From an uncultured Bacillota bacterium (GTDB taxonomy: Bacteria; Bacillota; DTU025; MWDF01): a stretch of DNA of 64,000 nucleotides. A program made the translations under genes and the position numbers. Position 1 is the first letter of the stretch. Each line of letters starts with the position of its first letter. Where the stretch lies: assembly GCA_963823655.1 (NCBI GenBank), contig CAWGMK010000006.1, positions 192,001 to 256,000 of the forward strand, in the 5' to 3' direction. The notes under the pieces are model-generated. The model did not search any database, was not told the DNA's origin, and saw nothing but the letters and a program-made list of their open reading frames with translations. This document shows positions 15,267-52,786 of the stretch, in pieces.

Positions 15267-15548
15267 TAAGGCAATGAGGAAGAGGAGTACGCAAAGACCG
15301 CGCTTGGCAGAGAAGCGGCCCTTAGGCTGGAAGGCCGCGAAGCGTTTTGGTGGCGGAAGTCGCTTCTGAGCCCCGCAGGCGAGCGCAAAACGGTCCTGGA
15401 GATTGGACAGTATTGCGCCAGACGCGGAGGGTGCGCCCTATAAAGCGCTTAGAGTGCGGAAGGGCTTCATTGATTCAGCCCCGATGCGACAAAGGTGGTA
15501 CCGCGAAGAGCCCCTTCGCCCTTTGATGGGTAGGGGCTCTTCTTATTT
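15267..15548 (+). promoter_or_regulatory. T-box riboswitch (Val; specifier GUC at 15359-15361)
   Basis: Stem I AGAGA and GCTGGAA motifs, T-box AAAGGTGGTACCGCG at 15491-15505, terminator GAAGAGCCCCT..AGGGGCTCTTC plus T tract, directly before valS. Confidence 0.9.
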
Positions 15549-15566
15549 CTCATTCTGGCAGGAGGG

Positions 15567-18219
15567 ATGATCATGAGCACCAAACAATTAGCGCCGGCAT
15601 ATGAGCCGTCAACAGTAGAGGATAGGATATATGGTTTCTGGGAGGAGGGCGGCTACTTCCACGCAGAGCCCGACAAGAGCAAGGAGCCTTTCGTAATAGT
15701 CATGCCCCCGCCCAACATCACAGGCACGCTGCATATAGGACACGCACTGATGTCGACCATAGAGGACATACTTGTGCGTATAAGGCGCATGCAAGGCTAC
15801 AACACAGAATGGTGGCCGGGAACCGATCATGCATCCATAGCCACAGAGGCTAAAGTGGTCGCCTCCCTTGCGAAGGAGGGCATCACAAAGGCTGACCTGG
15901 GCCGCGAGGAGTTTCTTAAAAGGTGCTGGCAGTGGAAGGAGAACTACGGCGGCGCCATAGTGAACCAGCAGAAGAAGCTGGGCTGCTCGGCGGACTGGCA
16001 GAGGAGCCGCTTCACTATGGACGAAGTCTGCTCCAGGGCTGTCAGGGAAGTGTTCGTAAGGCTCTACGACGAAGGGCTTATATACCGCGGAAACCGCATG
16101 GTTAACTGGTGCACCAGCTGCAACACGTCCATATCCGACATTGAGGTGGAGCACGAGGACGTTACCGGAACCCTCTGGTACATCTCCTATCCGCTATCAG
16201 ATGGAACGGGAAGCATAACCATAGCGACTACAAGGCCTGAGACTATGCTCGGAGATACTGCAGTTGCCGTACATCCGGAGGACGACAGGTACAAGGCGGC
16301 AATAGGCAAGACCGTGAGGCTGCCCTTGGTCGGAAGGCTTATTCCCGTAATCGCCGACGAGTACGTAGACAGGCAGTTCGGCACGGGAGCCCTGAAAGTT
16401 ACGCCCTCACATGACGTCAACGACTATGAGCTGGGCAAGAAGCACAAGCTCGAAAGCGTACAAGTAGTAGGGCAGGATGGACTTATGACGGAGGATGCTG
16501 GTAAATTTGCCGGCATGAAGGCGGAGCTTGCCAGAAAGGCCGTGCTCGCGGAGCTGGAGGCGCTAGGTCTCATCAGCAAGACCGAGCCGCTTACCCACGC
16601 CGTCGGTCATTGCCAGAGGTGCGGCACCGTGGTAGAGCCGCTGCCCTCTCTGCAGTGGTTCGTGAAGATGGAGCCATTGGCAAAGCCGGCGGTAGAAGCC
16701 GCAAAATCAGGCGACATCAAGTTCGTGCCGGACCGCTTCACGAAGACATACCTCAATTGGATGGAAAACTGCAAGGACTGGTGCATATCCAGGCAGTTAT
16801 GGTGGGGCCACAGGATACCGGTGTGGTACTGCCAGTCCTGCGGGAAGCTCACTGCCTCCCGGGTAGACTTGGATAAATGCCCTGACTGCGGCGGGCCCGT
16901 AAACCAGGATGAGGATGTGCTCGATACATGGTTCTCGTCCGCCCTCTGGCCATTCTCCATAATGGGCTGGCCCGATATGACGCCTGAGCTGGAGCACTGG
17001 TACCCCGGTACGGTGCTTGAGACCGGCTATGACATCATCTTCTTCTGGGTGGCAAGGATGATCTTCTCGGGGCTGAAGTTCATGGGGCAGAAGCCCTTCT
17101 CGTATGTGCTCCTGCACGGACTGGTAAGGAATGCGGACGGCAGCAAGATGAGCAGGTCCAAAGGCCAGGGCGTGGACCCTCTGGAGATCATCTCCCAATA
17201 TGGGGCGGATGCTCTCAGGATGACCGTGATTTCGGGCAATACGCCCGGCAACGACATACGCTGGAACCCGGAGAAGGTGGAGGCTAACCGCAATTTCGCG
17301 AACAAGGTCTGGAACGCTTCCAGGTTCGTACTTATGAACCTTAGAAGGGTTTGACCCGGATGCGGTGGAGCCGGAGAAGCTGGAGATGACGCTGCCTGAC
17401 AGGTGGATTATCTCAAGGCTTGCGGCCGCTTCGGCCGAGGTGCAGAGGTTCACCGACAGGTTCGAAATAGGAGAGGCTGCCCGCATAGTGCAGGAATTCA
17501 TATGGGGGGAGTACTGCGACTGGTATATCGAGGCGGCAAAGCCAAGGCTATATGGCAAAGAGGGGGAGGATGCGAAGAAGACCGCACAGTTTATCCTCTG
17601 GAAGGGGCTCGACGGCGCCTTGAGGCTGCTGCACCCATTCATGCCCTTCATCACCGAGGAGATCTGGCAGATGCTTCCAGGATCCGTAGGGGCGCTGATC
17701 AATTCCCATCTGCCGGCATCCGCCGAAGCATTGAGGGATATGGCCGCCGAGGCTGAGATGGGCTCGATGATGGAGCTCATCAGGACGATCAGGAATATCA
17801 AGGCGGAGTTCGGCGTGGCAAGCAACAAGAAGGTCGATGCGGTGTTCCAGGGTGGCGACGGCGAGCTTGCCCTTGTAAACAGGAACATGGGCCTGATAAG
17901 GACCCTTGCCGGCGTTGAGAACGCAAGCACGATAACGCCTGAAGCAGGCAAACCCGCCAAAGCCGCAGCAGGCGTGGCCTCCGGGATGGGAGTGTTCCTC
18001 CCTCTTGAGGGAATGATCGACATCGGCAAGGAGATTGAAAGGCTCAAAAAGGAAGTAGCTGGCATCGAGAAAGAGCTTGCAGGCGTAATGGGCAAGCTGT
18101 CGAACGAATCATTCGTAAGCCGTGCCCCCGAGTCAGTAGTTGAGCGCGAAAGGAACAAGGCCTCAGAGCTCGAAGCTGCCTCCATCAAATTCAAGGCAAG
18201 GATAGAGGAGCTGAGCTAG
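15567..18219 (+). CDS. valS: Valine-tRNA ligase (single +1 frameshift near 17343)
   Basis: [48 protein letters not shown]; anticodon and coiled-coil domains in ORF 17365-18219. Confidence 0.95.
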
Positions 18220-21767: not shown

Positions 21768-22136
21768 ATGAAGATAGACGAGGTGGCCTCGCTACTTGAG
21801 GCAGAGGTAATGGCCTGTGGGATGGATTCGCTCTCCGAAGAGGCGGATTTCGCCTTCGCGGCCGATCTTCTCAGCGATGTCCTTGCCTTCGGAAGGCCGG
21901 GTTATCTTCTGCTGACCGGCCTTATGGGAGGGCAGCTGATCAGGACTGCCGAGATTTCGGGCGTTGCGGCGATAATTTTCGTAAGGGGCAAAAGGCCAAC
22001 CCACGATATGACAGAGCTTGCGACAAAGACAGGAATGCCTTTGCTTACTACCAGGATGACGATGTACGAGGCCTGCGGAAAGCTCTATGAGGCAGGGGTC
22101 AGCCCCGCCGACTGCACTTCGGTAAGGGGGTCGTAA
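21768..22136 (+). CDS. DRTGG-domain protein
   Basis: AADLLSDVLAF..LLLTGL..RTAE..IIFVRGK..MYEACGKLY pattern; RBS GGGAGG. Confidence 0.75.
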   Translation: MKIDEVASLLEAEVMACGMDSLSEEADFAFAADLLSDVLAFGRPGYLLLTGLMGGQLIRTAEISGVAAIIFVRGKRPTHDMTELATKTGMPLLTTRMTMYEACGKLYEAGVSPADCTSVRGS

Positions 22137-22137
22137 T

Positions 22138-22572
22138 ATGTCTTCTGCCGACAACACAAAGCTGCATTTTGAGATCATCTCCCGCGATTTTCTAAGGGCG
22201 GGGGATGCGGCGTCGACCATCAAGCGCTACCTGAGCCAGAACGGCTTCGATCCCGAGCTGGTCAGAAGGGCGGCTGTGGCGGCATACGAGGCCGAGATGA
22301 ACATAGTCATCCACTCCCTTGGAGGTATGCTCACAGCGCAGGTTGAACCAGACCTGATTCTGATAACAGCTGTAGATGTAGGGCCCGGGATACCCGACAT
22401 ACCGTTGGCAATGACCGAGGGCTGGTCGACTGCGGACGAAGAGGCGAGGCGGATGGGCTTCGGAGCAGGCATGGGACTGCCGAATATGCAGAAGTGCTCA
22501 GACAAGTTCGAGATCACTTCAAGCCCCGGTACAGGCACGATGGTGAGGATGACCTTGAACAGGCACAAGTAG
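22138..22572 (+). CDS. RsbT-like anti-sigma regulatory factor / Ser-Thr kinase (HATPase_c)
   Basis: YEAEMNIVIH, DVGPGIPDI..AMTEGWST, GFGAGMGLPN. Confidence 0.8.
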   Translation: MSSADNTKLHFEIISRDFLRAGDAASTIKRYLSQNGFDPELVRRAAVAAYEAEMNIVIHSLGGMLTAQVEPDLILITAVDVGPGIPDIPLAMTEGWSTADEEARRMGFGAGMGLPNMQKCSDKFEITSSPGTGTMVRMTLNRHK

Positions 22573-22606
22573 TGTATTTTTAAAGATACAATCGATATTT
22601 AACCTG

Positions 22607-22645
22607 TTGAGGGTGGGGGAAAGGGCCTTACCCTCAATTTTCTTT
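22607..22645 (+). terminator. Terminator closing the valS..kinase unit
   Basis: TTGAGGGT..ACCCTCAA followed by TTTTCTTT. Confidence 0.7.
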
Positions 22646-22731
22646 GCTTTAGCAGGCAATTCATGCTCATAGGTGTGTCCCCTCCCCCTTATGCGCCGAT
22701 TATGCGGATATTCAGGCGAAAGTGAAGAACT

Positions 22732-22753
22732 TTGTGAAAAGTTGTTGTATAAT
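22732..22753 (+). promoter_or_regulatory. -10 box of the redox operon with an upstream Rex-box half-site
   Basis: TTGTGAA at 22732-22738, TATAAT at 22748-22753; no clear -35 and no second half-site. Confidence 0.4.
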
Positions 22754-22824
22754 TCATATTGGATTTGGGCGCACTTGCGGACAATAAGCCGTTGAAGTGC
22801 AAGAATAGTGAACGGAGAGGTAAG

Positions 22825-23280
22825 ATGCAGCAGACCGGAAAGGTTTTGGCCGTAGAGAAGGGTTGGGCGGTCCTGGAGATAATCAGGCCCCATGCATGCG
22901 CAGGTTGCGGCATGTGCAAGCCTTCAGATAACGCCAAAAAAGTTAAAGCAATCTGCGAAATTGACGTAACACCGGGAGATTTCGTGACCGTTGAGATAAA
23001 AGACGGAGACCTCGTCAAGGTTGCCGGCATAGCATACGGGGTTCCTCTATTGGGTTTCCTTGCAGGCATGATCGCCGGGAACGGTGTCGCGAAGTATTTC
23101 AAGATGGCTGACAAGGCGAACGGTTTCGCCGCTATAGGAGGCTTCCTGTTCCTTGCTCTGGCATATTTCGCTGTTAGGAAATATGACATGGGCCTGGATA
23201 AGAGGAAGTACTGTCCGACGGTTTCAGGTAAAGCAGATCCCGGGGAAGATTCGTGCCCGGGCAGGGGCAATGCCTCTTGA
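22825..23280 (+). CDS. RseC/MucC-family membrane protein
   Basis: MQQTGKV start, CAGCGMC, GDFVTV, AYGVPL then two TM helices. Confidence 0.8.
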   Translation: MQQTGKVLAVEKGWAVLEIIRPHACAGCGMCKPSDNAKKVKAICEIDVTPGDFVTVEIKDGDLVKVAGIAYGVPLLGFLAGMIAGNGVAKYFKMADKANGFAAIGGFLFLALAYFAVRKYDMGLDKRKYCPTVSGKADPGEDSCPGRGNAS

Positions 23281-23304
23281 TTCTAAAAACAGGGGGGTTA
23301 AAGC

Positions 23305-23952
23305 ATGAGCGAGCAGAAAGTACCTGATGTAGTAATCAGAAGGCTTCCTATGTACCTTAGGGCTTTGGACAACCTGGAAAGCGCCGGCTTGACCATCGTC
23401 TCATCAAAGGAGATGGGTGATGTAACGGGCATCTCTCCTACTCAGGTTCGTAAGGACCTGACAATATTCGGAGGCTTCGGCAAGCAGGGGGTAGGCTACA
23501 AGATCAGCACCCTGAAGAAACAGCTCATGACCATCCTGAAGCTCGACAAGGACGTTAAGATCGCGATAATCGGGCTCGGCAGGATGGGCAAGGCGATCAT
23601 TCATTACAATGCATACAGGCGCGGCACGGGGCAGAGGACCAGCGGCTCTGAGAAGCTCGTGATAGAGGCCGGATTCGATGTCGATGAGGCCGTACTCAAG
23701 GAAGGCCCGTTCGATACTGTGCCCGCATACAATATAAGCATGCTCAAGGACGTAATTGCGCAGAATGAGATTAAGATCGCAGTCCTTACTGTACCTGCGG
23801 AATCGGCCCAGAAGGTGGCGGACATCTGTGTACAAGCGGGCATAAAGGCGATACTCAACTTCACTCCCGCGACGCTTTCTGTGCCCGAGCATGTGAAAGT
23901 AAGCAATGCCGATGTGACGGTATCGCTCCAGAGCCTTTCATTCTACGCTTGA
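23305..23952 (+). CDS. rex: Redox-sensing transcriptional repressor Rex
   Basis: IRRLPMYLR, SSKEM, QVRKDL..FGGFGKQGVGY, GxGxxGxA Rossmann fold, GIKAILNFTP. Confidence 0.93.
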   Translation: MSEQKVPDVVIRRLPMYLRALDNLESAGLTIVSSKEMGDVTGISPTQVRKDLTIFGGFGKQGVGYKISTLKKQLMTILKLDKDVKIAIIGLGRMGKAIIHYNAYRRGTGQRTSGSEKLVIEAGFDVDEAVLKEGPFDTVPAYNISMLKDVIAQNEIKIAVLTVPAESAQKVADICVQAGIKAILNFTPATLSVPEHVKVSNADVTVSLQSLSFYA

Positions 23953-23986
23953 TCTCTAACCTATCGAATCAAGGAGGTAAATCCCT

Positions 23987-24904
23987 ATGTCCGGCAAGGC
24001 ATCGATTTTTACGCGCGGCAAGGTCCAGGGAATAATCCTTCTGGTGCTGATAATCGTCATCGGGGCGACTATCGCAGCAGCAAGCTACACCGAGACTGAC
24101 AAGTATTGCAGTTCCTGCCATTCAATGAAGCCCCTGGCCGATACATGGTCTGAAAGCAACCATGCACAGGTTGGATGCGCCGAATGCCATATGAAGCCCG
24201 GTTTCACGGGCTGGTTTGAGAACCGCTTCGCCATAGCCCGTATGAGGGGCGTAGAGAAGAAGGGCGGAACCACAAGTTTCGCCGAAATGCAGATAGAGGA
24301 CCAGTTCTGCGTGCGCTGCCATGCCAATGCGAGCACTTCCAAAGGATCGGAAGAGGTGGCGGCTCCGCACACCATACATGTTGGCGGAATGGGCATCGCC
24401 TGCTATGAGTGCCACGAGGGCCAGGTTCACGGGCTGGATGGCAACATGCCAGAGGGTATAAGCCATGACAAGTGCAACACCTGCCATTACGACTGGTTCG
24501 CAGAAGGCACCGCCGACTGCGCCAAGTGCCACATAAAAGCCGACATCGAAGCCACCGACAAGCTTATTATCCCTCACGAGACCCACAACTTCTTCGGGTG
24601 CGAATCCTGCCATGTCGAGTACGTGATAGGCGCTGAGGGCGAGCTGGGGCATCCGACCTGCACGCAATGCCATGAGGATTGGTTCAATGCGGCGGCCCCA
24701 AGCTGCGGAAGCTGCCATATCAATTTGGAGTTCACAGAGACCGAGGAATATACAATCCCCCATGGCGCACACATCGGCTTCGGGTGCGAGACCTGCCACA
24801 GCGACCAGGTTACACCCGCAGGAGAGGGCCTGAGCCATGCATCCTGCGAAGGCTGCCACGGCGACTGGTTCGAAGAAGAGTGCACCAAGTGCCATAAGTG
24901 GTAG
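23987..24904 (+). CDS. Membrane-anchored dodecaheme c-type cytochrome (NapC/NirT-like head plus three tri-heme repeats)
   Basis: 12 CxxCH motifs in 305 aa; N-terminal TM helix; CSSCHSM; RBS AAGGAGG. Confidence 0.92.
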   Translation: MSGKASIFTRGKVQGIILLVLIIVIGATIAAASYTETDKYCSSCHSMKPLADTWSESNHAQVGCAECHMKPGFTGWFENRFAIARMRGVEKKGGTTSFAEMQIEDQFCVRCHANASTSKGSEEVAAPHTIHVGGMGIACYECHEGQVHGLDGNMPEGISHDKCNTCHYDWFAEGTADCAKCHIKADIEATDKLIIPHETHNFFGCESCHVEYVIGAEGELGHPTCTQCHEDWFNAAAPSCGSCHINLEFTETEEYTIPHGAHIGFGCETCHSDQVTPAGEGLSHASCEGCHGDWFEEECTKCHKW

Positions 24905-24918
24905 GAAGGCGGGAAAGT

Positions 24919-25761
24919 ATGCACAAGATCCTTGAGAAAAGGCCTCTGGCCCAATCTGTCTACATGTTCGTGCTGGAAGCCCCGCTGGTGGCAAGGGCCG
25001 CCAAACCGGGCAACTTCGTTATGGTAAGGGCTGATGAGGCCGGCGAGAGGATACCTCTTACCATCGTAGATAACGACCCTGCAAAAGGGACGATAACCAT
25101 CGTAGTCCAGGAAATCGGCGCATCAACCATGAAGATGTGCGCATTTCCGGAAGGCGCATCATTCTCGGATGTTTTGGGCCCCTGCGGCACGCCCACCAAG
25201 ATCGAGAAGGTCGGCACCGTCATTGCCGTTGCAGGGGGCATCGGGATAGCACCCCTCATCCCGCAGATAAGGGAACACATGAGAGTAGGCAACAAGGTAG
25301 TAACAATCCTCGGCGCAAGGACTGAGGACCTCTATGTGCTAAGGGATACGGCGACTATGGTTTCAAGCGAGATGATACTTTGCACAGATGACGGAAGCTG
25401 CGGCTTCCACGGTTTCGTTACGCAGGCCCTTGAAGAGTATATAAAGGCGGGCAAGCCTGCGGATGAGGTTGTGGCGATAGGTCCGGTCAGGATGATGAAG
25501 GCCTGCGCCGATGTGACAAGGAAGTATGGAATCAAGACGACGGTCAGCCTCAACGCCACCATGCTTGACGGCACCGGAATGTGCGGCTGCTGCAGGGTCA
25601 GCATCGACGGCGTGACGAAGTTCTCGTGCGTTGACGGGCCCGAGTTCGATGCCCACAAAGTGGATTTCGACGAGCTGATAAAAAGGCAGACTTTCTTCCG
25701 CGAAGAGGAGAAGCTCGCAGTTGAAAAGCACAGGGCGGGGGAGGGCTGCAAATGCCAGTAA
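24919..25761 (+). CDS. nfnA: Electron-bifurcating transhydrogenase small subunit NfnA (SudB/PyrK-like)
   Basis: PGNFVMV..GERIPLTI, GGIGIAP, TDDGS, IGPVRMM, MLDGTGMCGCCRV..CVDGPEFD. Confidence 0.9.
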   Translation: MHKILEKRPLAQSVYMFVLEAPLVARAAKPGNFVMVRADEAGERIPLTIVDNDPAKGTITIVVQEIGASTMKMCAFPEGASFSDVLGPCGTPTKIEKVGTVIAVAGGIGIAPLIPQIREHMRVGNKVVTILGARTEDLYVLRDTATMVSSEMILCTDDGSCGFHGFVTQALEEYIKAGKPADEVVAIGPVRMMKACADVTRKYGIKTTVSLNATMLDGTGMCGCCRVSIDGVTKFSCVDGPEFDAHKVDFDELIKRQTFFREEEKLAVEKHRAGEGCKCQ

Positions 25762-27155
25762 AGGATCTTTTCGCGCGGCCTGAGATGCCCAAACAGGACC
25801 CGGGCGTGCGCAGTACGAATTTCAATGAAGTGGCCCTGGGCCTGGCCGAAGAAACCGCAATGCTTGAAGCCCAGAGGTGCATACAGTGCAAGAACAAGCC
25901 TTGCGTTGCCGGCTGCCCCGTCGAAGTGCCAATACCGGAATTCCTGGCCCTTTCGGCCCAGGGCAAGTTCACCGAAGCTTCTTTGAAAATCAAGGAGAAG
26001 AACAGCCTTCCTGCGGTATGCGGCAGGGTGTGCCCTCAGGAGAGCCAGTGCGAACAGGTATGCACGCTCGCCAAGAAGTTCAAGCCTGTGGCGATAGGCA
26101 TGATGGAGCGTTTCGTTTCCGACTATGAAAGGGCTAATTCCTCTGAGGATACGAAGAGAAGGACCAAGGATGGCGCAAAGAAAGTCGCAGTCATCGGATC
26201 CGGCCCGTCGGGGCTCACCTGCGCCGCGGACCTTGCGCTGATGGGCTATAACGTTGACATCTACGAGTCTTTGCACGAGACAGGTGGCGTCTTGAGGTAC
26301 GGCATCCCTGAGTTCAGGCTTCCCAAGGACATCGTCGACAAGGAAGTGCAGTACGTAAGGGAGCTTGGCGTAAGGATCATCACCAATGCCGTGATCGGCA
26401 TGAGCCTGACTTTAGAGGAGCTTCTGAGCACAGAGGGCTACAGCGCCGTCTTCATAGGCACGGGCGCAGGCCTTCCTTATTTCCTCGGCATACCGGGCGA
26501 GAACCTCAACGGCGTATATTCTGCCAATGAGTTTCTCACCAGGGTGAACCTTATGAAAGCCTACAAATTCCCCTGCTACGGGACGCCTGTGAAGATTGGC
26601 GAGAAGGTAGCGGTAGTCGGAGCGGGCAATGTGGCGATGGACTCGGCGAGGACCGCGCTCAGGCTGGGTGCCAAGGAAGTAAGCATAGTATACAGGAGGT
26701 CCCGCCAGGAGATGCCGGCGAGGATCGAGGAGATCGAAAACGCCGAGGAAGAGGGAGTCAAGCTTAACCTACTGACGAACCCGCTGGAGATCGTCGGCGA
26801 CTCTAATGGCGCAGTAATGAAGATGATCTGCCAGAGGATGGAGCTTGGTGAACCGGATGCCTCCGGGAGGCGCAGACCGGTTCCTGTGGCAGGCTCTGAG
26901 TTCGATGTTGAAGCACAGACGGTCGTTGTGGCGATAGGACAGGGGCCCAACCCCGTTCTGACGAGGAACACCAAGGGACTTGAGCTGAATAAGTATGGCA
27001 ATATTGTGTCAAGGGACGAGTATGGTCAGACCAGCATGCCCGGTGTATTCGCCGGTGGCGACATAGTCACGGGCGCGGCTACAGTCATAGCCGCCATGGG
27101 AGCAGGCAAGTTAGCAGCCAAAGGTATAGATATCTACATTAAATCGAAAGTATAA
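25752..27155 (+). CDS. nfnB: Transhydrogenase large subunit NfnB (GltD/SudA-like)
   Basis: [56 protein letters not shown]; overlaps nfnA; no gltB nearby. Confidence 0.88.
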
Positions 27156-27169
27156 GTGGAGGTGCCAAG

Positions 27170-28849
27170 ATGCCCATACCAAGCGACATCCAGATAGCAC
27201 AGGCAACAGAGTTGAGACCGATATCGGAAGTGGCGGCAAGCATCGGCCTTTCCGAGGAAGACCTCGAGCATTACGGCAAATACAAGGCAAAGCTCCCCTT
27301 AAGCCTGCTTGAAAGGCTCAAGGACAGGAAAGACGGCAAGCTGATCTACACAACTGCAATCACCGCGACGCCAGCTGGCGAGGGTAAGACCTGCACCGCG
27401 ATAGGCGTGACCCAGGCGCTGGGCAAGCTCGGCAAGAAAGTGGCCGTAGCCCTCAGGGAACCTTCCCTGGGCCCTGTTTTCGGAGTAAAAGGCGGAGCCA
27501 CCGGCGGGGGCTACTCCCAGGTCCTTCCGATGGAGGACATCAACCTCCACTTCACAGGCGATATTCACGCCGTCACAACGGCGCATAACCTGATGGTAGC
27601 GCTTCTGGACAACCATATTTTCCAGGGCAACGTCCTTAACATCGACCCGAGAAGGGTTACCGTTAAGCGCGTTATGGACATGAATGACAGGCAGCTGAGG
27701 AACATCGTATGCGGGCTTGGCGGCACAAACAACGGAGTGCCCAGGGAGAGCGGCTTCGATATCAGCGTCGCATCAGAAGTGATGGCGATACTTTGCCTGG
27801 CATCGGGCACCGAGGACCTGAAGGCCAGATTGGGAAGGATAATCGTCGCTTATACCCACGACAGGAAGCCTGTGACTGCAGCCGACATCAAAGCAGTAGG
27901 CTCCATGGCAGTGCTGCTCAAGGACGCCATTAAACCGAACCTTGTACAGACAGTCGAAGGGCAGCCCGCGCTGATACACGGCGGCCCGTTCGCCAATATC
28001 GCCCACGGCAACAACTCGATAATCGCAACCCGGCTGGCTCTTAAGTTAGCCGACTATGTAGTAACCGAGGGCGGCTTCGCTTCAGACCTGGGAGCGGAGA
28101 AGTTCTTCGACATAGTACACAGGCAGACCGGCCTCAAGCCGGACGTGGCAGTCCTGGTGGCATCGGTAAGGGCCTTGAACATGCACGGCGGAGTAGCGAA
28201 GGACAAGGTCTCGGAGACCAACCTCGAAGCGCTTGCCAAAGGCTGCGAGAACCTGGAAGCCCACATCGACAACCTGAAGAACAACTTCGGCCTTCCTGTG
28301 GTAGTCGCGATAAACAGGTTCCCGTCCGACAGCCCGGAGGAGCTGGAGCTTGTTAAGGACCGCTGCGAGAAGCGCGGCGTCCGTTACGCGGTTTCCGAAG
28401 TCGTCGCCAAGGGCGGAGATGGCGGCGCAGAGCTTGCAAAGCAGGTCCTGGAAGCGCTCGAGAACGACAAGAACGACTTCAGGATGCTGTACAGCCTCGA
28501 TATACCGGCTGAGGAGAAGATAAAGAAGCTGGCCAAGGAAGTATATGGCGCTGACGATGTGATATTCTCCGAGTCCGCCAAGAATATGCTCGGTACAGTC
28601 AGGAAGATCGGCTATGGCAATCTGCCCATATGCATGGCGAAGACGCAGCATTCCCTCTCGGACAACCCTGATATGAAGGGAAGGCCCAGAGGATGGAAGC
28701 TGAGCGTAAGGGAAATCAGGATATCGGCTGGCGCTGGCTTCATAGTTGCGATAACAGGCGAAGTAATGACCATGCCTGGGCTTCCGAAGGTGCCCGCTGC
28801 GGACAGCATCGATATTCTTGAGGATGGCACTATACTAAATCTGTTCTAA
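27170..28849 (+). CDS. fhs: Formate-tetrahydrofolate ligase
   Basis: [59 protein letters not shown]. Confidence 0.97.
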
Positions 28850-28895
28850 GTAGTTAAATAGATAGGGTTTCCAAATCGTCTAAGGAGTGAGATAG

Positions 28896-30212
28896 ATGGC
28901 TGTGAGGACATTCATCGGTGGAATCCACCCGGTATCGTGCAAATTCACCGGGGATTTGCCGATAGTAGCCGGCAAGCTGCCAGCTAAGCTGACGGTGCCG
29001 GTCGGTCCCTCTTGGGTCGGCTACACCGTTCTGGCGCCCAGGGGCACCGAAGTAAAAGTGGGCCAGAAGCTAGCCGACAATGAGGGCTTTATGTGCGTTC
29101 CTACGCACTCCCCCGTATCAGGGAAAGTGGTTGACGTAAAACCTTACAGGGGGCCCAACGGCCTCGAGTACCTCGGGATCACGATCGAAACTGACGGCAG
29201 GCAGGACATACACGAGAGCGTGCAGCCCCTGCCAGCTTTGGAGACGATGAGCCCCGAGGACATCAGGAAGGCCATTAGGGAGGCCGGCATGCTGGGACAG
29301 GGCGGGGCTGAGTTCCCGACACACGTCAAGCTATCTCTCCCCCAGGGCTGCAAAGTGGACACTTTGGTTGTAAATGGCGGTGAATGCGAACCGTACCTGA
29401 CAGCCGACCACAGGATTATGCTAGAGCACGCGGAGAAAGTCGTTCACGGGACTTCCATCCTGATGAGGAGCATCGGCGTAGACCGGGCGATCATCGGCGT
29501 AGAGGACAACAAGATGGATGCCGTGATGGCATTGAACAGCGCAGCGCTTTCCTATAAGGGAATAGAGATTGCGGCGTGCAAGGCAAATTATCCGCAAGGA
29601 TATGAGAAGTCGATGATCAAAGCGACGCTAGGGCGCGAAGTGCCCCCAGGCGGGCTGCCTAGGGATGTCGGCGTGGTAGTCGTCAATGTCGGCACCGCCG
29701 CATCAATATCCGAGAGATTCCGCACAGGCATGCCCCTTATAAAAAGGATTGTGACCGTAGGCGGCTCAGCCGTGCAGAATCCGTCGAACATCGAAGCCCT
29801 TATCGGGACCTACGCCCAGGACCTTGTGGAACAGTGCGGCGGCACTAAAGGCGAGGTGGGGAAGGTCATCTTCGGCGGCCCCATGATGGGAGTCGCCGCA
29901 TCAGGCCTTAACTTCCCGGTCTCGAAGGGAACGTCCGGGATAATCCTGTTCGACCGCAAGGAGACGCTCTTCTGGAAAGAGATGCCTTGCATAAGATGCG
30001 GCAGGTGCAATGAAGTCTGCCCGATGTTCATTGAGCCTTCTGAGATACACAAGTACGCCCTTGCAGGCGATATGCAAAGGGCTGAAAAGCTAAACGCCGT
30101 AGATTGCATGGAGTGCGGGAGCTGTTCATACGTGTGCCCGTCAAAGAGGCCTATAGTGCAGTCTATCAAGCTGGCCAAGCAGTACGTGCAGGCCAAGCGC
30201 GGCAAGAAGTGA
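28896..30212 (+). CDS. rnfC: Rnf complex subunit C
   Basis: GGIHP, HSPVSGKV, GGAEFPTHVKL, ECEPYLTADHR, GGPMMG, CIRCGRC..CP and CMECGSC..CP. Confidence 0.93.
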   Translation: MAVRTFIGGIHPVSCKFTGDLPIVAGKLPAKLTVPVGPSWVGYTVLAPRGTEVKVGQKLADNEGFMCVPTHSPVSGKVVDVKPYRGPNGLEYLGITIETDGRQDIHESVQPLPALETMSPEDIRKAIREAGMLGQGGAEFPTHVKLSLPQGCKVDTLVVNGGECEPYLTADHRIMLEHAEKVVHGTSILMRSIGVDRAIIGVEDNKMDAVMALNSAALSYKGIEIAACKANYPQGYEKSMIKATLGREVPPGGLPRDVGVVVVNVGTAASISERFRTGMPLIKRIVTVGGSAVQNPSNIEALIGTYAQDLVEQCGGTKGEVGKVIFGGPMMGVAASGLNFPVSKGTSGIILFDRKETLFWKEMPCIRCGRCNEVCPMFIEPSEIHKYALAGDMQRAEKLNAVDCMECGSCSYVCPSKRPIVQSIKLAKQYVQAKRGKK

Positions 30213-30225
30213 CGGGGTGATGGAC

Positions 30226-31198
30226 ATGTCAGATAACGGCCTAATAATCACTGCGGCTCCGCACATAAGAGAAAGGGTGGCGACACCCAGAATCATGAGG
30301 GCGGTATTCGCGGCCCTAGTGCCGGCTCCGCCTGCGGAATATATTTCTTCGGGCCCTGGGCTGCGATCAATATCGTAGTCGGCGTGGCGTCTGCAGTCAT
30401 CTTGGAGTACCTGATACAGAAGATATGGAAGCTCGAGATAACCATTAGCGACGGTTCGGCTGCCCTTGACAGGGCTTTTCATAGCGATGAGTCATGCCTC
30501 CGGCAGTAGAACCATGGGTGACCGCACTTGCGTGCCTTATAGCCATAGGGCCCGGCAAAATGGTGTTCGGCGGCTGGGCTTCAACATATTCAATCCCGCG
30601 CTAATCGGAAGGACCTTTGCGGCGCTCGCTTGGCCTGGCGGTCGTAGGCGCAGGTTATGTGGCGCCCGGCGGCATAGAGGCCTGGATAGCGAGGTTTCGA
30701 CGTAGTTTCGACAGCGACTCCGCTCACACTGCTGAAGACGGAGAGATCGGAGGCACAACGCTTTCAAAGTACTATTGCCCGCTCTTCTTTGGCAATGTTG
30801 CAGGGTCGCTCGGGGAGACTTCGGCGGTTGCGCTTCTTATCGGGGCGCTATTCCTGCTCTTTGCAGGCATCATTACACTGAGGATACCGCTGGTCTACAT
30901 ATTGACTACAGTAGGCCTTGCCATGGCTTTCAATCAGGATCCGATCTTCCATCTGCTGTCGGGAGGCCTGATTCTTGGAGCATTCTTCATGGCCACAGAC
31001 TATGTGACAAGCCCGATAAAGCCTACCGCGCAGATAGTATATGCGGTGGGGTTAGGGGTATTCACGTTCCTTATAAGGATGTTCGGCAGCTATCCTGAGG
31101 GCGTGGCGTTCTCGATACTTCTTATGAACTGCTTCGTGCCGCTCATTGAGAGGTTCGGCAAGCCGAGGCGTTTCGGGGAGGTGCGCAACCATGCGTGA
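30226..31198 (+). CDS. rnfD: Rnf complex subunit D (several frameshifts between 30330 and 30760)
   Basis: APHIR, FGGxGFNIFNPALIGR, STATPL flavinylation site, GSLGETS, GAFFMATDYVTSP, YPEGVAFSILLMN. Confidence 0.9.
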
Positions 31199-31753
31199 TC
31201 TAGTTAAGTACGGAGCGATACTGACGATAATATGCATAGTTTCCGGCGTTTCATTGGCCTTCGTTTACAGCAAGACCAGCGTGATAATCGCCGACAGGCA
31301 GGCAAAAGAAGCGATGAAGGCAATGGCAGTAGTGCTTCCCGCAGCGACGGATTTCGTAGAGATTCCGGCGGACGAGCTTTCGCAGCGGCGGGAGAGGCTA
31401 CAGGAATTCTGCAGGCATACCTCGGAAAGCCGCGGATGAGACCGTAGGGGCGATTGTAAAAGTGGAAAGCCCGGGTTACGGCGGCATGATATCATGCTAA
31501 TTGGCATGGATAGCTGCGGAGTATGCCAGGGCATGCAGGTCATAAGCCAGAGCGAGACGCCCGGGCCTCGGGGCCAATGTCAAGGAAGAGGCCTTCTATG
31601 GCCAGTTCGCTGGACAAGCAGGGACGTATTGTCCCTGAAGAAAGCGGGCGGCAGACATCGACGCGATATCGGGCGCCACGATTTCGTCCAAGGCGTGCGG
31701 TTGCCGGGGTCAATAAGGCCCTTGATGTGGCAAGAGCGCTCCTTGGGCTGTAG
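31191..31753 (+). CDS. rnfG: Rnf complex subunit G (several frameshifts)
   Basis: N-terminal TM helix, SPGYGG, SETPGLG, DAISGATISS FMN site spread over frames. Confidence 0.85.
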
Positions 31754-31766
31754 GGAGGAATCGAAG

Positions 31767-32428
31767 ATGAGCGCAATCAAGGAATTCAAGAAGGGTTTAT
31801 GGGCGGAGAGCCCGACCTTCGTACTGCTCATTGGCATGTGCCCTACAATGGTGTCTTCGACATGCGGTGTCAAATGCGCTGGGAATGGGGCTTGCCGCAA
31901 CATTCGTTTTGGTCTTCAGCAACCTGTTCATAGCGGCCCTTAGGAGCATAATACCTGACAAGATAAGGATCCCCTGCTTCATCGTTGTAATTGCGACCTT
32001 CGTTACGATAGTAGACCTCGTCATGGCGGCATATGTGCCGGACCTCCACAAGGTGCTCGGAGTCTTCGTCCCCTGATAGTGGTCAACTGCATAATACTAG
32101 CCAGGGCAGAGGCATTCGCCTATAAGAACAGCGTAGTCGACTCGATAGCGGACGGGCTCGGGATGGGCCTCGGCTTTACTATTGGCGTACTGATTATCTC
32201 GCTATAATCAGGGAGCCCCTTGCTACCGGTAAGATAATGGCTACGCCAAGGACTTCAACTTCGAAGGCTTAAGGCTTCTGCCGGTAAAATTCGCAGCGCA
32301 CTCTCATAGACAAGCCTGTCGGCGGCTTCATGACCCTCGGCTTCGTGCTTGCGGCGATAAATGCGCTCACAAGCAAGAAGAAGAAGGCGCAGCAGGCCAA
32401 TTGCGGCTGCGTCCCGAAGGAGGTATAG
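31767..32428 (+). CDS. rnfE: Rnf complex subunit E (several frameshifts)
   Basis: [55 protein letters not shown]. Confidence 0.88.
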
Positions 32429-32431
32429 CCT

Positions 32432-33032
32432 ATGAAAGAACTATTCGTAATCCTTCTTAGCACAATCCTGGTCAACAATTATATGCTGGCCAGAATAATG
32501 GGTACTTGCCCGTTCATCGGCGTCTCGAACCAGTTCGATACCGCCATGGGCATGGCTGCGGCCGTAGTCTTCGTTATGAGCCTTGCGGCTGCGGTGACGT
32601 GGCTTGTGCAGTACTATCTGCTCGTTCCCCTGGGATTGGGCTTCCTCCAGACGGTAGCCTTCATCCTGGTAATAGCAGCGCTGGTGCAGCTCATCGAGAT
32701 GATCATCCTGAAGATGAGCCCCACCCTTTACAGGGCGCTTGGGAATATACCTTCCGCTGATCACGACCAACTGCGCAGTCCTCGGCGTCGCAGTTATCAA
32801 CGTGCGCGATGGATACAACTTCATAGAAGCTGTCATATCCGGCACAGGCGGAGGCATCGGCTTCTCCCTGGTGCTGATTGCAATGGCGGCTCTTCGCGAA
32901 AAGCTCAATACGGCGCCGATTGCGAAGTCCTTCAAGGGCTTCCCGCTGACGCTGATCATAACTGCCCAGATGGCGATGGCTTTCCTGGGCTTCTCCGGTT
33001 TCAACCTCGAGAAGCTCTTCGGCCTGCGCTAG
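32432..33032 (+). CDS. rnfA: Rnf complex subunit A (frameshift near 32742)
   Basis: LVNNYML..GTCPFIGVS, FILVIAALVQ, LGIYLPLITTNCAVLG, AFLGFSG. Confidence 0.9.
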
Positions 33033-33056
33033 CCGGCCGATGGAGGTGTAAGAAAG

Positions 33057-33878
33057 ATGGTACTCAACAGCTTATTCGTCCTGGGCGGCATGGGATTGGC
33101 CTTCGGAGTGGCGCTTGCCATAGCGGCAAGGTTGCTTGCGGTCGAAAGGGATCCCAGGATGGAGCTCGTACAGGCGGCTCTTCCCGGAGCCAACTGCGGA
33201 GCTTGCGGCTTCCCCGGTTGCGGCGGCCTGGCAACGGCCATCGTAGAGGGCAAGGCCCCGTGCGACCAGTGCCCCGTCGGCGGAGCCAAAGTGGCGGCCA
33301 AGGTGGCCGAGATAATGTGCGTCGTGGTAGATACAAGCAAAGGCCCCAATTTCGCAAGGCTGATGTGCGCAGGCGGCAAGGGGATCGCGAGGGACGTGGC
33401 CGAATATCAGGGGATTATGGACTGCACTGCAGCACATGCAGTAAGCGGCGGGTTCAAGGCGTGCTCCTACGGCTGCCTCGGCCTTGCCACATGCGTCAGG
33501 GAATGCCCGTTCGACGCAATGTACATGGGAGAGGACAACCTTCCCAAAATAGACGATTCAAAGTGCACAGGCTGCGGAAAGTGCGTTACCGCCTGCCCTA
33601 GGGCATTGCTTGCCCTCAGGTCGGCGGATGAGCCGGTGAACGTGGTCTGCACATCTAAAGCCCCGCTTCCAAAGAGCAAGCTGGATTGCTCGGCGGTATG
33701 CATCGGCTGTCAGATCTGCGTTAAGAACTGCCCTACTCAGGCCATACGCATGGAAGGCACAGTAGCGGTAATCGACAACAGCAAATGCACCAAGTGCGGC
33801 ATATGCATACAGAAATGCCCGGTCAAGTGCATACATAACCTCTTCGGGGCGGACTCGGACCTGATAGTCCAGGCCTGA
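33057..33878 (+). CDS. rnfB: Rnf complex subunit B
   Basis: TM anchor, LPGANCGACGFPGC, CSYGCLGLATCVRECPF, further CxxCxxCxxxCP motifs. Confidence 0.93.
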   Translation: MVLNSLFVLGGMGLAFGVALAIAARLLAVERDPRMELVQAALPGANCGACGFPGCGGLATAIVEGKAPCDQCPVGGAKVAAKVAEIMCVVVDTSKGPNFARLMCAGGKGIARDVAEYQGIMDCTAAHAVSGGFKACSYGCLGLATCVRECPFDAMYMGEDNLPKIDDSKCTGCGKCVTACPRALLALRSADEPVNVVCTSKAPLPKSKLDCSAVCIGCQICVKNCPTQAIRMEGTVAVIDNSKCTKCGICIQKCPVKCIHNLFGADSDLIVQA

Positions 33879-33901
33879 CAGGAGAATACCTGAAGATACC
33901 G

Positions 33902-33950
33902 TGGTGCCCGGGGCGCGTGCTAACGCGACGCGGGCACCATTTTTTTGTTT
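33902..33950 (+). terminator. Terminator ending the redox operon
   Basis: TGGTGCCCG..CGGGCACCA followed by T8. Confidence 0.8.
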
Positions 33951-34114
33951 GAGGGACCCTAAAAACCATCAAAGCCGATTTCAGGGCAAAGCCCGTGTAC
34001 AGCCGCGTTTCCAAGTTTAGCCCCGAATGGTGTATAATATCGGACTGTGTTTTATGTTAGATTATATTGTAGGGGAGACGGATCTCAACCTTCGGCATGA
34101 GATCCGGTGTTTAT

Positions 34115-34691
34115 ATGGGAAAGATAGTGCTTGCCTCGGCGTCTCCGAGGAGAATAGAGCTTCTAGGTGCGCTAGGGCTGAAATTCGATGTTGTGCCCAG
34201 CAATGAGGAAGAAGTAGTGGACGATTGCCTGTCTCCGGACGAATTGGTGAATGTCTTTGGCCAGGCTAAAGGCTGCGGCGGTGGCAAAGCTGAGGCCGTC
34301 CGACACAATCATCGGGGCGGATACAGTAGTCGTGCTTAACGGAATAATCCTCGGCAAACCGGCAGACAACAAGGACGCATGCGCGATGCTCAGCATGCTT
34401 GAAGGCAAAGAGCATGAGGTATTCACCGGCGTCTGTGTCATCTGCAGGGAAAAGGGAATAGAGGACTGCCGCCACGAGGTGACCAAGGTGCGCTTCTGTT
34501 CCATGAGCAGGGCTGATATCGAAAGTTACGTTGCCACAGGGGAACCCATGGACAAGGCCGGAGCATATGCCATTCAGGGTTTGGGATCATTATTCGTGTC
34601 AGGAATAACCGGGGATTACTTCAATGTTGTCGGGCTTCCGCTAAGGCTGACCGCCTCGATGCTCATTGAAGCCGGCACGCACATAATCTAG
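34115..34691 (+). CDS. maf: Maf nucleotide pyrophosphatase (frameshift near 34250)
   Basis: LASASPRR, GADTVV, LGKP, DKAGAYAIQG, NVVGLP. Confidence 0.9.
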
Positions 34692-41592: not shown

Positions 41593-41604
41593 ACTGGAGG
41601 GCCG

Positions 41605-44187: not shown

Positions 44188-44191
44188 GAAT

Positions 44192-47966: not shown

Positions 47967-48015
47967 CACAGGAGGCGCGCACGGTTTAGAATTGGTGTAG
48001 CGCACGAAACCGGAG

Positions 48016-52370: not shown

Positions 52371-52545
52371 ATGGCACGGCCTTCGGCCTAAAAGCCAACC
52401 AGATCGGCCAACGCCCATTCAGGAGCCTCCCTAAAATAAGAGCTCTAATCGGCCGGTTTAACGTGGATTTATCTTCGGTTCATCACAATCGCGAATGAAA
52501 AACTTGACTTGGAGCCGATTACGCAATAGCATTCTAATAAGATAC

Positions 52546-52786
52546 AGACGCGATGATGGGGAAATATACCGAAGTTGCGCAAAAGAGACGCCAGGGCCTA
52601 TAGGCTGAGAGCCCGGCGGGCGCAAGCGGAGTAAGACCACCCCGGAGCACGCCTTGTAAGAGCAAAGCTTCAAGAGGCGCGGTGGGCACCGTTAAAAGCC
52701 GATCGAGAGGGCATGCCAGGCGCTTGCCAATTCGGGTGGAACCGCGGATTATATCCGTCCCGTATCAGGGGCGGATTTTATTTTTT
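52546..52786 (+). promoter_or_regulatory. T-box riboswitch (Thr; specifier ACC at 52636-52638)
   Basis: AGAGA and GCTGAGA motifs, TTCGGGTGGAACCGCGG, terminator plus T tract; promoter TTGACT-17 bp-TAGCAT at 52504-52532. Confidence 0.9.

Follow-up and report, generated by a model that had tools for sequence, protein, structure and literature searches.

A conserved cluster of redox genes with a 12-heme cytochrome, nfnAB, fhs and rnf in uncultured Clostridia

The DNA analysed here (the window) is a stretch of 64,000 nucleotides from an uncultured Bacillota bacterium. On its + strand, positions 22825-33878 hold twelve genes, all in one direction and in the order rseC-rex-cytochrome-nfnA-nfnB-fhs-rnfCDGEAB. 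They are predicted to encode the Rnf ferredoxin:NAD+ ion pump, the NfnAB transhydrogenase (which would tie ferredoxin, NADH, and NADPH together), formyl-THF ligase, the NADH sensor Rex, RseC, and a 12-heme cytochrome. The features of the region are as follows.

22606..22638, + strand: intrinsic terminator closing the upstream DRTGG/HATPase unit; 13 pairs with a T-rich tail, folds as a hairpin
22729..22755, + strand: promoter-like block with a perfect TATAAT (22748-22753), about 70 nt ahead of the rseC start
22825..23280, + strand: rseC; PF04246, 85.2 bits against a cut-off of 24.4; 68-71% identity in relatives
23305..23952, + strand: rex, redox-sensing repressor; NF003995, 223.3 bits against a cut-off of 126
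23987..24904, + strand: 12-heme c-type cytochrome with an N-terminal membrane helix, an NrfH/NapC-like module, and three triheme repeats
24919..25761, + strand: nfnA, small subunit; NF004862, 385.3 bits against a cut-off of 220
25752..27155, + strand: nfnB, large subunit; TIGR01316, 581.7 bits against a cut-off of 471.75
27170..28849, + strand: fhs, formate--tetrahydrofolate ligase; NF010030, 876.4 bits against 652; PF01268, E 4e-263
28896..30212, + strand: rnfC, intact; TIGR01945, 475.1 bits against a cut-off of 245.95; 0 frameshifts
30217..31198, + strand: rnfD, 7 frameshifts; once corrected, 94% identity to P0009 and 90% to P0011, with no in-frame stop
31191..31753, + strand: rnfG, 7 frameshifts; once corrected, 88% identity to P0279 and 79% to L006
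31767..32428, + strand: rnfE, 5 frameshifts; once corrected, 84% identity to L006
32432..33032, + strand: rnfA, 1 frameshift near 32738; once corrected, 97% identity to L006
30326..32741, no strand: probable stretch of poor or foreign consensus, holding the 20 indels and marked by changed relatedness
33057..33878, + strand: rnfB, intact; TIGR01944, 112.2 bits against a cut-off of 68.7; 0 frameshifts
33901..33950, + strand: downstream intrinsic terminator; hairpin at 33901-33940, then seven T; -35.9 kcal/mol, z -5.35

Eight of the twelve genes are intact open reading frames, each above a curated profile cut-off, and the identities given in the first-pass annotation hold on these profile scores and on matches to solved structures. 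NfnA is closest to NfnI (5jca_S) and 4ylf_A, NfnB to 4ylf_B (E 1.7e-171) and 5jca_L, and Rex shows its DNA-binding N-terminal domain and Rossmann domain. That annotation had also counted twelve co-directional genes; the coordinates and direction stand, but rnfD, rnfG, rnfE, and rnfA are not open frames. The spacers measure, in gene order, 24, 34, 14, -10, 14, 46, 4, -8, 13, 3, and 24 nt, the third being counted with nfnA from the ATG at 24919 (this ATG and its ribosome-binding site are conserved; the alternative start is a GTG at 24898).

A genome scan found the same gene order in all six related MAG loci (two of which end at contig ends), with synteny held from folC to radC, so that the arrangement is indeed kept in relatives. 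All six belong to one clade, and the whole 20 kb is syntenic; the conservation is thus not independent evidence of coupling. Our literature searches found no paper describing the order rseC-rex-cytochrome-nfnAB-fhs-rnfCDGEAB, and the first-pass annotation knew of no such description either. Judged from sequence, the cluster is genuine and vertically conserved, a set of redox genes kept by a few related uncultured Clostridia from digesters.

The boundaries fit a single unit, as the first-pass annotation had proposed on the strength of a terminator and -10 box upstream, a strong terminator downstream, and none in between. The promoter-like block of 27 nt is conserved in all six aligned sequences (the window and five loci) and occurs once in the window, where 0 chance matches are expected. 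It shows no good -35 hexamer, and a consensus promoter scan of the window made no call there. At the downstream end, none of 200 shuffles folds as well as the terminator; hairpins of different sequence occupy its position in L003 (weaker, z -1.75, with 11 of 200 shuffles folding as well), L005, and L006, and the relatives likewise carry hairpins of different sequence at the position of the upstream terminator. A + strand terminator scan gave no convincing internal terminator, since the sites inside genes have 5-8 pairs only; the total of 18 terminator-like sites lies near the shuffle mean of 11.6 (sd 3.5). In the four of the 11 spacers that were aligned, ribosome-binding sites are the sole conserved elements. 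Control of the operon by Rex finds no backing in its sequence, as no Rex operator with at most 3 mismatches lies near the cluster promoter. In short, a single transcript most likely covers the cluster, from the conserved promoter before rseC to the terminator after rnfB, although a coding sequence may hold an internal promoter.

The broken state of rnfDGEA had been missed by the earlier annotation. Frameshift-aware alignment counts 7 + 7 + 5 + 1 = 20 frameshifts in these genes between 30325 and 32738, each an indel of 1-2 nt, against 0 in the controls rnfC, rnfB, and fhs; in rnfE, the two halves of the Rnf-Nqr Pfam domain even fall in different frames. At the indel frequency seen elsewhere in the window, 0.27 would be expected in the stretch (P about 2e-30 for 20). 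The corrected path contains 0 in-frame stops, and the genes are intact in all four relatives' loci that cover them. After correction, identity matches that of the intact neighbors: corrected RnfD, RnfG, RnfE, and RnfA are 82, 79, 84, and 97% identical to L006, and the intact RnfC, RnfB, and Fhs 75, 76, and 88%. Relatedness also shifts within the stretch, where 71 of 219 informative sites group the window with L001/L003, versus 172 of 276 in the flanks (Fisher p 3e-11). Elsewhere in the window, the essential valS and at least five other genes are split as well; with housekeeping genes frameshifted, the sequence evidently has errors. We read the 20 indels as a bad, possibly chimeric consensus patch and hence as a probable fault of the sequence, not gene decay.

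The cytochrome is a protein of 305 aa with one N-terminal membrane helix. Its 12 CxxCH motifs are invariant in all eight family members, as are 11 further His and Met47 of the CxxCHxM at heme 1, and it is under purifying selection (dN/dS 0.04-0.15). Both PF14522 (46.6 bits against 24.8) and PF03264 (33.9 against 24.1) match above their cut-offs. The four-heme fold of the NrfH/NapC/NirT/CymA proteins is its best match by profile as well as by fold: NrfH is the top solved match by sequence profile (2j7a_C, E 5.7e-6) and the top fold match (prob 1.00, TM 0.62 of target, 139 columns, E 3.5e-3), and the first ~145 residues fold like this membrane quinol dehydrogenase, in a model with a pLDDT of 80-95 for residues 10-180 and 36-73 for the C-terminal repeats. 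As in PDB 2j7a chain C, heme 1 with its CxxCHxM comes immediately after the N-terminal membrane helix. Unlike NrfH, however, the protein has eight more hemes in three repeats, and no NrfA, NapAB, or other reductase gene adjoins it. The triheme repeats are c7-like and 38-54% identical to each other. In this respect they resemble Geobacter GSU1996 (PDB 3oue), a dodecaheme polymer of c7-type triheme domains: repeated triheme units, enough spare His for bis-His ligation, and PF14522 above its cut-off are shared, whereas the GSU1996 fragment gives no significant fold match (E 1.4), and GSU1996 is soluble and not known to be linked to rnf. The label of a "surface" cytochrome gains no support from a sequence with one N-terminal helix, an NrfH-like fold, and neither an LPxTG motif nor a lipobox. 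We propose instead that the protein would be held in the cytoplasmic membrane by its N-terminal helix, facing outward. Cell-wall cytochromes, a partner reductase, or a further cytochrome were not found in cluster or window, nor did a scan of 85 window ORFs turn up genes for cytochrome c maturation, heme, or quinones. The syntrophy or direct interspecies electron transfer suggested in the first-pass annotation is a conjecture.

Structure prediction of the cytochrome with RnfD and RnfG, one of the checks suggested by the first-pass annotation, was carried out with all chains taken from L006, a relative, since both rnfD and rnfG are frameshifted in the window. The model scores 0.68, against 0.00 for the best of three controls; 116 of 157 solved complexes and 2 of 215 mismatched pairs reach this mark, counts that are only roughly valid because custom alignments and three chains were used. 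Contacts agree to at least 92% between runs, and the partner pLDDT is at least 78. Cytochrome residues 10-36 (the helix) and 63-79 meet RnfD residues 178-187, 207-225, and 235-243, adjoining the conserved region of the FMN-threonine (A166/T167). The model holds no hemes, flavins, or lipid, and since its decoys may not be membrane proteins, generic helix packing may explain the modelled contacts. At the modelled interface, RnfD residues specific to the clade show no significant enrichment (5/26 versus 30/300, p 0.13), and the PG..G part of the cytochrome's contact loop is also conserved in remote homologs of unknown context. Within these bounds, the model supports docking on RnfD and with it a link between cytochrome and Rnf.

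The earlier comparison with the rnf-associated cytochromes MmcA and DhcA proved apt, with differences. As described in PMC11024163, MmcA is a multiheme c-type cytochrome encoded in the rnf gene cluster of Methanosarcina acetivorans and thought to pass Rnf electrons to a membrane carrier or outside acceptors. The likeness, drawn from that description, lies in a multiheme c-type cytochrome encoded in an rnf cluster; MmcA itself binds seven hemes and is related to octaheme tetrathionate reductases, with two non-canonical heme motifs and no membrane helix, whereas the present cytochrome combines 12 canonical motifs with a membrane helix and an NrfH/c7 build. Moreover, mmcA directly precedes rnfC (same source), whereas nfnAB and fhs stand between cytochrome and rnfC here. 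The decaheme DhcA starts the co-transcribed rnfCDGEABF operon of Desulfovibrio alaskensis G20, and PMC4215793 reports no fitness role for it in nearly all tested conditions; by that description, the system differs in phylum, in its ten hemes, and in an operon without rex, nfnAB, and fhs. Closer to home, four species (Clostridium ljungdahlii, C. autoethanogenum, C. carboxidovorans, and C. kluyveri) have rseC immediately before rnfCDGEAB, and in C. ljungdahlii rseC is its own transcript, according to PMC9124969. In the window too, rseC opens and rnfCDGEAB, in the same order, closes the cluster, but rex, the cytochrome gene, nfnA, nfnB, and fhs stand in between.

Taken together, the best explanation, to which we give a probability of about 0.5, is that of one redox operon in which the cytochrome sits on RnfD as a functional analog of MmcA and the rnfDGEA frameshifts are an artifact. 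A serious rival, although one we hold to be rather unlikely, is a quinol-linked role independent of Rnf: the cytochrome would act, like CymA, ImcH, or NrfH, as a quinol dehydrogenase or quinone reductase, working with a menaquinone pool and other cytochromes encoded elsewhere, and would share only its regulation, not a complex, with Rnf, Nfn, and Fhs. An N-terminal module with CxxCHxM at heme 1 is a hallmark of quinol dehydrogenases and points to the quinone pool, not Rnf; here, Met47 is invariant, PF03264 is above cut-off, and the NrfH match in fold and profile spans the membrane helix and hemes 1-4. Proteins of like build, pairing NapC/NirT and c7 domains, occur across many phyla in a protein atlas, and Gram-positive schemes of extracellular electron transfer, as outlined in PMC7829351, begin with membrane quinol-oxidizing cytochromes. 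On the other hand, the NrfH equivalog model stays far under its cut-off (36.4 versus 134.2), partner reductases and further cytochromes are missing from cluster and window, and the complex model puts the very same helix and loop on RnfD.

It is less probable still that the twelve genes are mere neighbors by descent, read from several transcripts for unrelated needs (rseC alone, rex-cytochrome, nfnAB-fhs, and rnfCDGEAB, for example), with the cytochrome unconnected to Rnf or C1 metabolism. The single clade with its syntenic 20 kb would fit such a view, as would the separate rseC transcript of C. ljungdahlii (PMC9124969) and the DhcA without an Rnf-linked phenotype (PMC4215793); promoter-like matches inside the cluster genes are at chance level and speak neither for nor against it. 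Spacers of 3-46 nt or overlaps, the conservation of ribosome-binding sites only in those aligned, strong terminators at the two ends only (in positions kept in relatives), and the modelled binding all argue against it. True decay of rnfD, rnfG, rnfE, and rnfA, leaving a strain without the Rnf membrane core and a cluster kept for Nfn, Fhs, and the cytochrome, is very improbable: the frameshifts are confined to 2.4 kb between intact rnfC and rnfB and far exceed the window background, but decay giving 20 indels should bring many substitutions, whereas in-frame stops are absent, identity is undiminished after correction (RnfA 97%, RnfD 94% to the best relatives), valS and other housekeeping genes are frameshifted too, and relatedness switches at the same boundaries, as with a patch from another population.

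If the cluster is a single operon with its cytochrome bound to Rnf, the membrane helix of the protein and the conserved loop that follows heme 2 would dock on RnfD, and the protein would take electrons from, or give them to, the outward-facing flavins of RnfD/RnfG. The electrons that C1 metabolism places on ferredoxin and NAD(P)H could in that case cross the membrane in either direction, and the protein would be a functional analog, not a homolog, of Methanosarcina MmcA. For these bacteria, the cytochrome may thus offer Rnf a path for electrons out of the cell.

We read the cluster rseC-rex-cytochrome-nfnA-nfnB-fhs-rnfCDGEAB as one redox operon in which the cytochrome would work on Rnf, and give this reading about even odds. 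The model for it is MmcA, the Rnf-associated cytochrome of Methanosarcina, which is reported to work on Rnf in that organism (PMC11024163; PMC12174285).

The first-pass annotation had described twelve co-directional genes at 22825-33878 (+ strand). All twelve are present, including all six rnf subunit genes (C, D, G, E, A, and B, in that order), separated throughout the cluster by spacers of 3-46 nt or joined by short overlaps. Eight are intact and score above curated cut-offs, whereas the frames of rnfD, rnfG, rnfE, and rnfA are not open. The intact genes are the following:

22825-23280, + strand: rseC, intact, above the curated family cut-off
23305-23952, + strand: rex, intact (NF003995 score 223.3, cut-off 126)
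23987-24904, + strand: cytochrome gene, intact, above the curated family cut-off
24919-25761, + strand: nfnA, intact, with a possible alternative GTG start at 24898
25752-27155, + strand: nfnB, intact, above the curated cut-off
27170-28849, + strand: fhs, intact, above the curated cut-off
28896-30212, + strand: rnfC, intact, above the NCBIfam cut-off
33057-33878, + strand: rnfB, intact, above the NCBIfam cut-off

Rnf exchanges electrons between ferredoxin and NAD+ and couples this exchange to ion transport, NfnAB balances the ferredoxin, NADH, and NADPH pools, the Wood–Ljungdahl enzyme Fhs connects formate and formyl-THF, and Rex is an NADH sensor. The Rex protein encoded here combines a winged-helix N-terminus (PF06971) with an NAD(H)-binding Rossmann domain (PF02629). 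For nfnA, the ATG at 24919 with its ribosome-binding site is the conserved start, as opposed to the GTG at 24898. NfnA and NfnB have their best solved relatives in 5jca_S (E 1.1e-87) and 4ylf_A and in 4ylf_B (E 1.7e-171) and 5jca_L, respectively, and are thus predicted to be the two subunits of an NfnAB/NfnI-type transhydrogenase (structures 4ylf, 5jca). As for rseC, rnf expression in C. ljungdahlii is reported to require RseC (PMC9124969).

The arrangement recurs elsewhere. Scanning one genome per species with the profile gave 37 matching stretches. A relative is encoded in seven of them, which make up six distinct loci (L001-L006), all from metagenome-assembled genomes titled Clostridia, Bacillota, or Firmicutes. 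The order is kept in all six as far as their contigs extend: L003, L005, and L006 span folC to radC, L001 stops in rnfB, L002 stops in rnfC, and L004 covers rex to fhs. Conservation among relatives is thus borne out, and the gene order is independent of the present assembly. Since the whole 20 kb is syntenic within one clade, this speaks for inheritance and maintenance and adds no independent argument that the genes are functionally coupled.

The four broken genes were identified from Pfam fragments and alignment to relatives; the ORF listing shows no open frame for them in the window. Frameshift-aware protein-to-DNA alignment places 20 frameshifts between 30325 and 32738, seven in rnfD, seven in rnfG, five in rnfE, and one in rnfA (ten of +1 base, three of +2 bases, and seven of -1 base), and none in rnfC, rnfB, or fhs. 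Tblastn with the relatives' proteins and a DNA alignment to four relatives agree with this alignment. The four genes are open in all four relatives that span the region, and so are the RnfD and RnfG genes (P0011 and P0284) on the 30,437-bp contig where the closest cytochrome, P0001, is encoded. Once the frame is corrected, the path contains no stop codons, and the corrected RnfD, RnfG, RnfE, and RnfA are 82, 79, 84, and 97% identical to those of L006, next to 75, 76, and 88% for the intact RnfC, RnfB, and Fhs. Judged from these comparisons, we take the breaks for faults in the sequence rather than gene decay. We reject homopolymer errors as the only explanation, since most of the indels lie in non-homopolymer contexts, and likewise a different genetic code or programmed frameshifting, since the relatives' open frames encode the same proteins.

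Outside this patch, at least seven split-gene events occur in 61.6 kb, which predicts 0.27 per 2.4 kb against the 20 observed. Besides the four rnf genes, the split genes are as follows:

6661-7799: tig
15534-18216: valS
34097-34691: maf
41593-43465: radical-SAM gene
44024-46169: RNase E/G gene
48001-50795: UPF0182 gene

The essential valS has an extra base near 17344, the frame of maf breaks near 34253, and the UPF0182 gene is split twice; the TrkH gene (4635-5678, - strand) lacks the first 139 profile positions. As housekeeping genes outside the cluster are also split, the contig has scattered indel errors in addition to the dense rnfDGEA patch.

The patch also differs from its surroundings in its affinities. 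The sites scored are those where L001 and L003 share a state that is found in neither L005 nor L006. Within the patch, the window groups with L001/L003 at 71 of 219 of these sites; the corresponding counts are 172 of 276 for the flanks (p 3e-11 versus the patch) and 504 of 942 for the remaining operon (p 2e-8 versus the patch). Relatedness at 30326-32741 is mosaic among lineages. After correction, RnfD has 94% identity to P0009, and RnfG has 88% identity to P0279, which comes from another source. Between RnfG and P0284, however, identity is only 70%, even though the window's cytochrome and P0001 match at 296 of 305 residues (97%). Such a mosaic reflects either recombination within the clade or a chimeric assembly. 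The error burst and the switch in affinity share their boundaries, which fits a patch derived from a related, thinly covered population; alternatively, the tract is a real recombination event that was badly called. For annotation, the 2.4 kb of bad sequence carry a warning, as this copy would be called Rnf-negative.

Do the genes form one transcription unit? The flanking terminators and the -10 box noticed in the first reading are all found. The upstream gene pair ends with a 13-pair terminator (22606-22638), at whose position the relatives have hairpins of different sequence. About 70 nt upstream of rseC, a block of 27 nt contains a perfect TATAAT (22748-22753) and no good -35 hexamer; it is kept in all six aligned sequences and occurs nowhere else in the window. 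Downstream of rnfB follows a hairpin with a T run (-35.9 kcal/mol, z -5.35), and L003, L005, and L006 again have hairpins of different sequence at the same position, the one in L003 being weaker, with z -1.75 and 11 of 200 shuffles folding equally well. Likewise, no convincing internal terminator emerged: the terminator-like sites inside the genes are short, the total of 18 is close to the shuffle mean of 11.6 (sd 3.5), and in the four aligned internal spacers the only conserved elements are ribosome-binding sites. One candidate internal promoter (28809-28836, matching 9 of 12 positions) was rejected, as it lies inside the fhs coding sequence and its conservation agrees with that of the codons. 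Taken together, these features give good, if not conclusive, computational support to a single transcription unit. In C. ljungdahlii, rseC is reported as its own transcript (PMC9124969).

No match to the Rex operator consensus with up to three mismatches occurs near the promoter (22573-22824), and the three matches in the whole window, each with three mismatches, are at chance level (1.39 expected). The conserved promoter block offers only a half-site-like TTGTGAA. Rex is therefore a member of the cluster whose regulatory role is putative only. Directly after the stop of the upstream HATPase-like gene, an inverted repeat (TGTAT-N8-ATACA, 22573-22590) is kept in all six aligned sequences, while the neighboring terminator changes sequence; it may be a protein-binding site. 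The upstream genes themselves, for a DRTGG-domain protein and a histidine-kinase-like ATPase, form a tight pair (21768-22572; 75-93% identity in relatives). In Clostridia, DRTGG/HATPase pairs often stand beside hydrogenase or formate dehydrogenase clusters, neither of which adjoins the pair here.

An Rfam scan found no RNA family within 22500-34000. Elsewhere, the window holds 13 tRNA genes in three clusters, a lone 5S rRNA gene amid tRNA genes (57010-57126; no 16S or 23S in the window), and a T-box leader (52544-52765) before the threonyl-tRNA synthetase gene, an ordinary position for Bacillota.

The cytochrome has 305 aa with 12 CxxCH motifs and no longer ones. Its close family comprises seven homologues with 66-97% identity, all of 304-305 aa with 12 motifs, plus one remote match, and dN/dS values are 0.04-0.15. 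Invariant in all eight family members are the 12 motifs, 11 further His, and Met47 of a CxxCHxM motif, which provides enough ligands for eleven hemes of the bis-His type and for a heme 1 like that of NrfH. The Met of CxxCHxM at heme 1 has a known role in NrfH, and the motif is also in the consensus of 50 wider homologues. The first-pass annotation had called this a surface cytochrome, a label that we drop: there is no LPxTG, lipobox, or cell-surface mark but one N-terminal membrane helix (uncharged run 13-35; model helix 7-34), with heme 1 directly after it. The protein is therefore a heme chain anchored in the membrane and facing outward.

By profile, the best solved relative is NrfH (2j7a_C, E 5.7e-6), with residues 22-79 aligned to NrfH residues 24-81, a range that includes the end of the helix and hemes 1-2. 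By fold, too, NrfH ranks first (139 columns, probability 1.00, E 3.5e-3, TM 0.62 of the target). A model from the 8-row family alignment was unusable (mean pLDDT 37.2), and one from a 50-row alignment was used instead (mean 70.8; 80-95 over residues 10-180, weaker beyond). Residues 125-305 consist of three triheme repeats that are 38-54% identical and match the c7 family. PF03264 scores 33.9 against a cut-off of 24.1, but over profile positions 14-77 of 174 only, and the NrfH equivalog TIGR03153 reaches 36.4 against 134.2.

Among 1.84 billion representatives, 1733 match at E <= 1e-3 and five at E <= 1e-30. Of the 149 listed out of these 1733, at least 41 have 230-450 aa with at least eight motifs, at least 15 of them with 12. 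Two of the five best are extended by additional triheme repeats between an unchanged N-terminal module and C-terminal end (P0129, 683 aa, 30 CxxCH; P0130, 494 aa, 21 CxxCH). The protein atlas offers only generic NapC/NirT and c7 clusters from many phyla, within which one 305-aa, mostly Bacillota cluster is probably the cytochrome's own. So small a family with only generic annotation is easily overlooked.

What might such a protein do beside Rnf? Structure prediction of the cytochrome with RnfG and RnfD, as proposed at the outset, favors contact. The complex of RnfD, RnfG, and the cytochrome from L006, each chain with its alignment, scored 0.68, against 0.00 for the best of three controls. That mark is reached by 116 of 157 solved complexes and two of 215 mismatched pairs, a rough guide here given our own alignments and three chains. 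At least 92% of contacts recur between runs, with partner pLDDT of at least 78. In the model, RnfD is contacted at 178-187, 207-225, and 235-243 by the cytochrome's helix (residues 10-36) and by the loop that follows heme 2 (63-79). We know of no solved complex of the Rnf-plus-cytochrome kind, so that the score is unlikely to reflect a memorized structure. The model is free of hemes, flavins, and lipid, and the decoys were possibly not membrane proteins. Clade-specific RnfD residues show no significant enrichment at the modelled interface (5 of 26 versus 30 of 300, p 0.13), and part of the contact loop is also conserved in remote homologues.

In the main rival reading, the cytochrome is quinol-linked, of the CymA/NrfH kind, and has only its regulation in common with the cluster. 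The membrane helix straight before heme 1 and the CxxCHxM at heme 1 are NapC/NirT/NrfH-like features, and the Desulfovibrio case of DhcA shows that a cytochrome cotranscribed with rnf need not matter for Rnf (PMC4215793). Unlike in NapC/NirT/NrfH systems, however, the cytochrome has no adjacent partner reductase; none (NrfA, NapAB, TorA, etc.) was found in the cluster or among 85 window ORFs scanned. We consider this rival possible but somewhat unlikely.

Partnership with Rnf, on the other hand, would make the cytochrome resemble MmcA in proposed function only. What the two share is location inside the rnf cluster; the present gene lies three genes before rnfC in 6/6 loci. MmcA is described as a heptaheme protein with CXXXCH and CXXXXCH motifs, no membrane helix, and kinship to octaheme tetrathionate reductase (PMC11024163), whereas the present protein has 12 CxxCH motifs, none longer, a membrane helix, and Pfam NapC/NirT plus c7 matches.

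Multiheme cytochromes are known in Gram-positive bacteria, and rnf-linked ones are more widely spread among sulfate reducers. Within rnf operons they are reported from Methanosarcina (PMC11024163) and Desulfovibrio (PMC4215793), and rseC and rnfC are reported as adjacent in four Clostridium species (PMC9124969). The suspicion that the present order had not been described holds for the literature searched, where we found no description. Three points are new: the arrangement occurs in Bacillota, the cytochrome combines NrfH-type and c7-type parts, and rex, the cytochrome gene, nfnAB, and fhs are inserted between rseC and rnfC.

A role in syntrophy or direct interspecies electron transfer by digester Clostridia is plausible, although nothing in the window points to it. 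Gram-positive electron-export schemes are described as needing further wall cytochromes (PMC7829351), and the window contains none. Going further, and tentatively as a whole, these Clostridia may have independently built an MmcA-like solution, i.e., an Rnf with a seventh, heme-bearing partner on RnfD made of an NrfH head and c7-type repeats. Ferredoxin oxidation could then pump ions while electrons leave the membrane directly, with no quinone pool involved, and the 21- and 30-heme relatives would be lengthened forms of this wire that extend into the wall. Tied to NfnAB and Fhs, the outlet would serve syntrophic C1 or acetate oxidation, with electrons going to a partner or a conductive surface.

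Many anaerobes rely on Rnf as their main energy-conserving machine, and in bacteria it is seen as a closed ferredoxin/NAD+ device. Bacteria in which Rnf works in this manner are stated to lack an MmcA-like cytochrome (PMC11024163). If our reading is true, a Bacillota Rnf equipped with a multiheme outlet of its own would be a concrete and testable electron-export route for uncultured digester Clostridia, and its co-encoding with Nfn and Fhs would bear on how syntrophic oxidizers dispose of their electrons.
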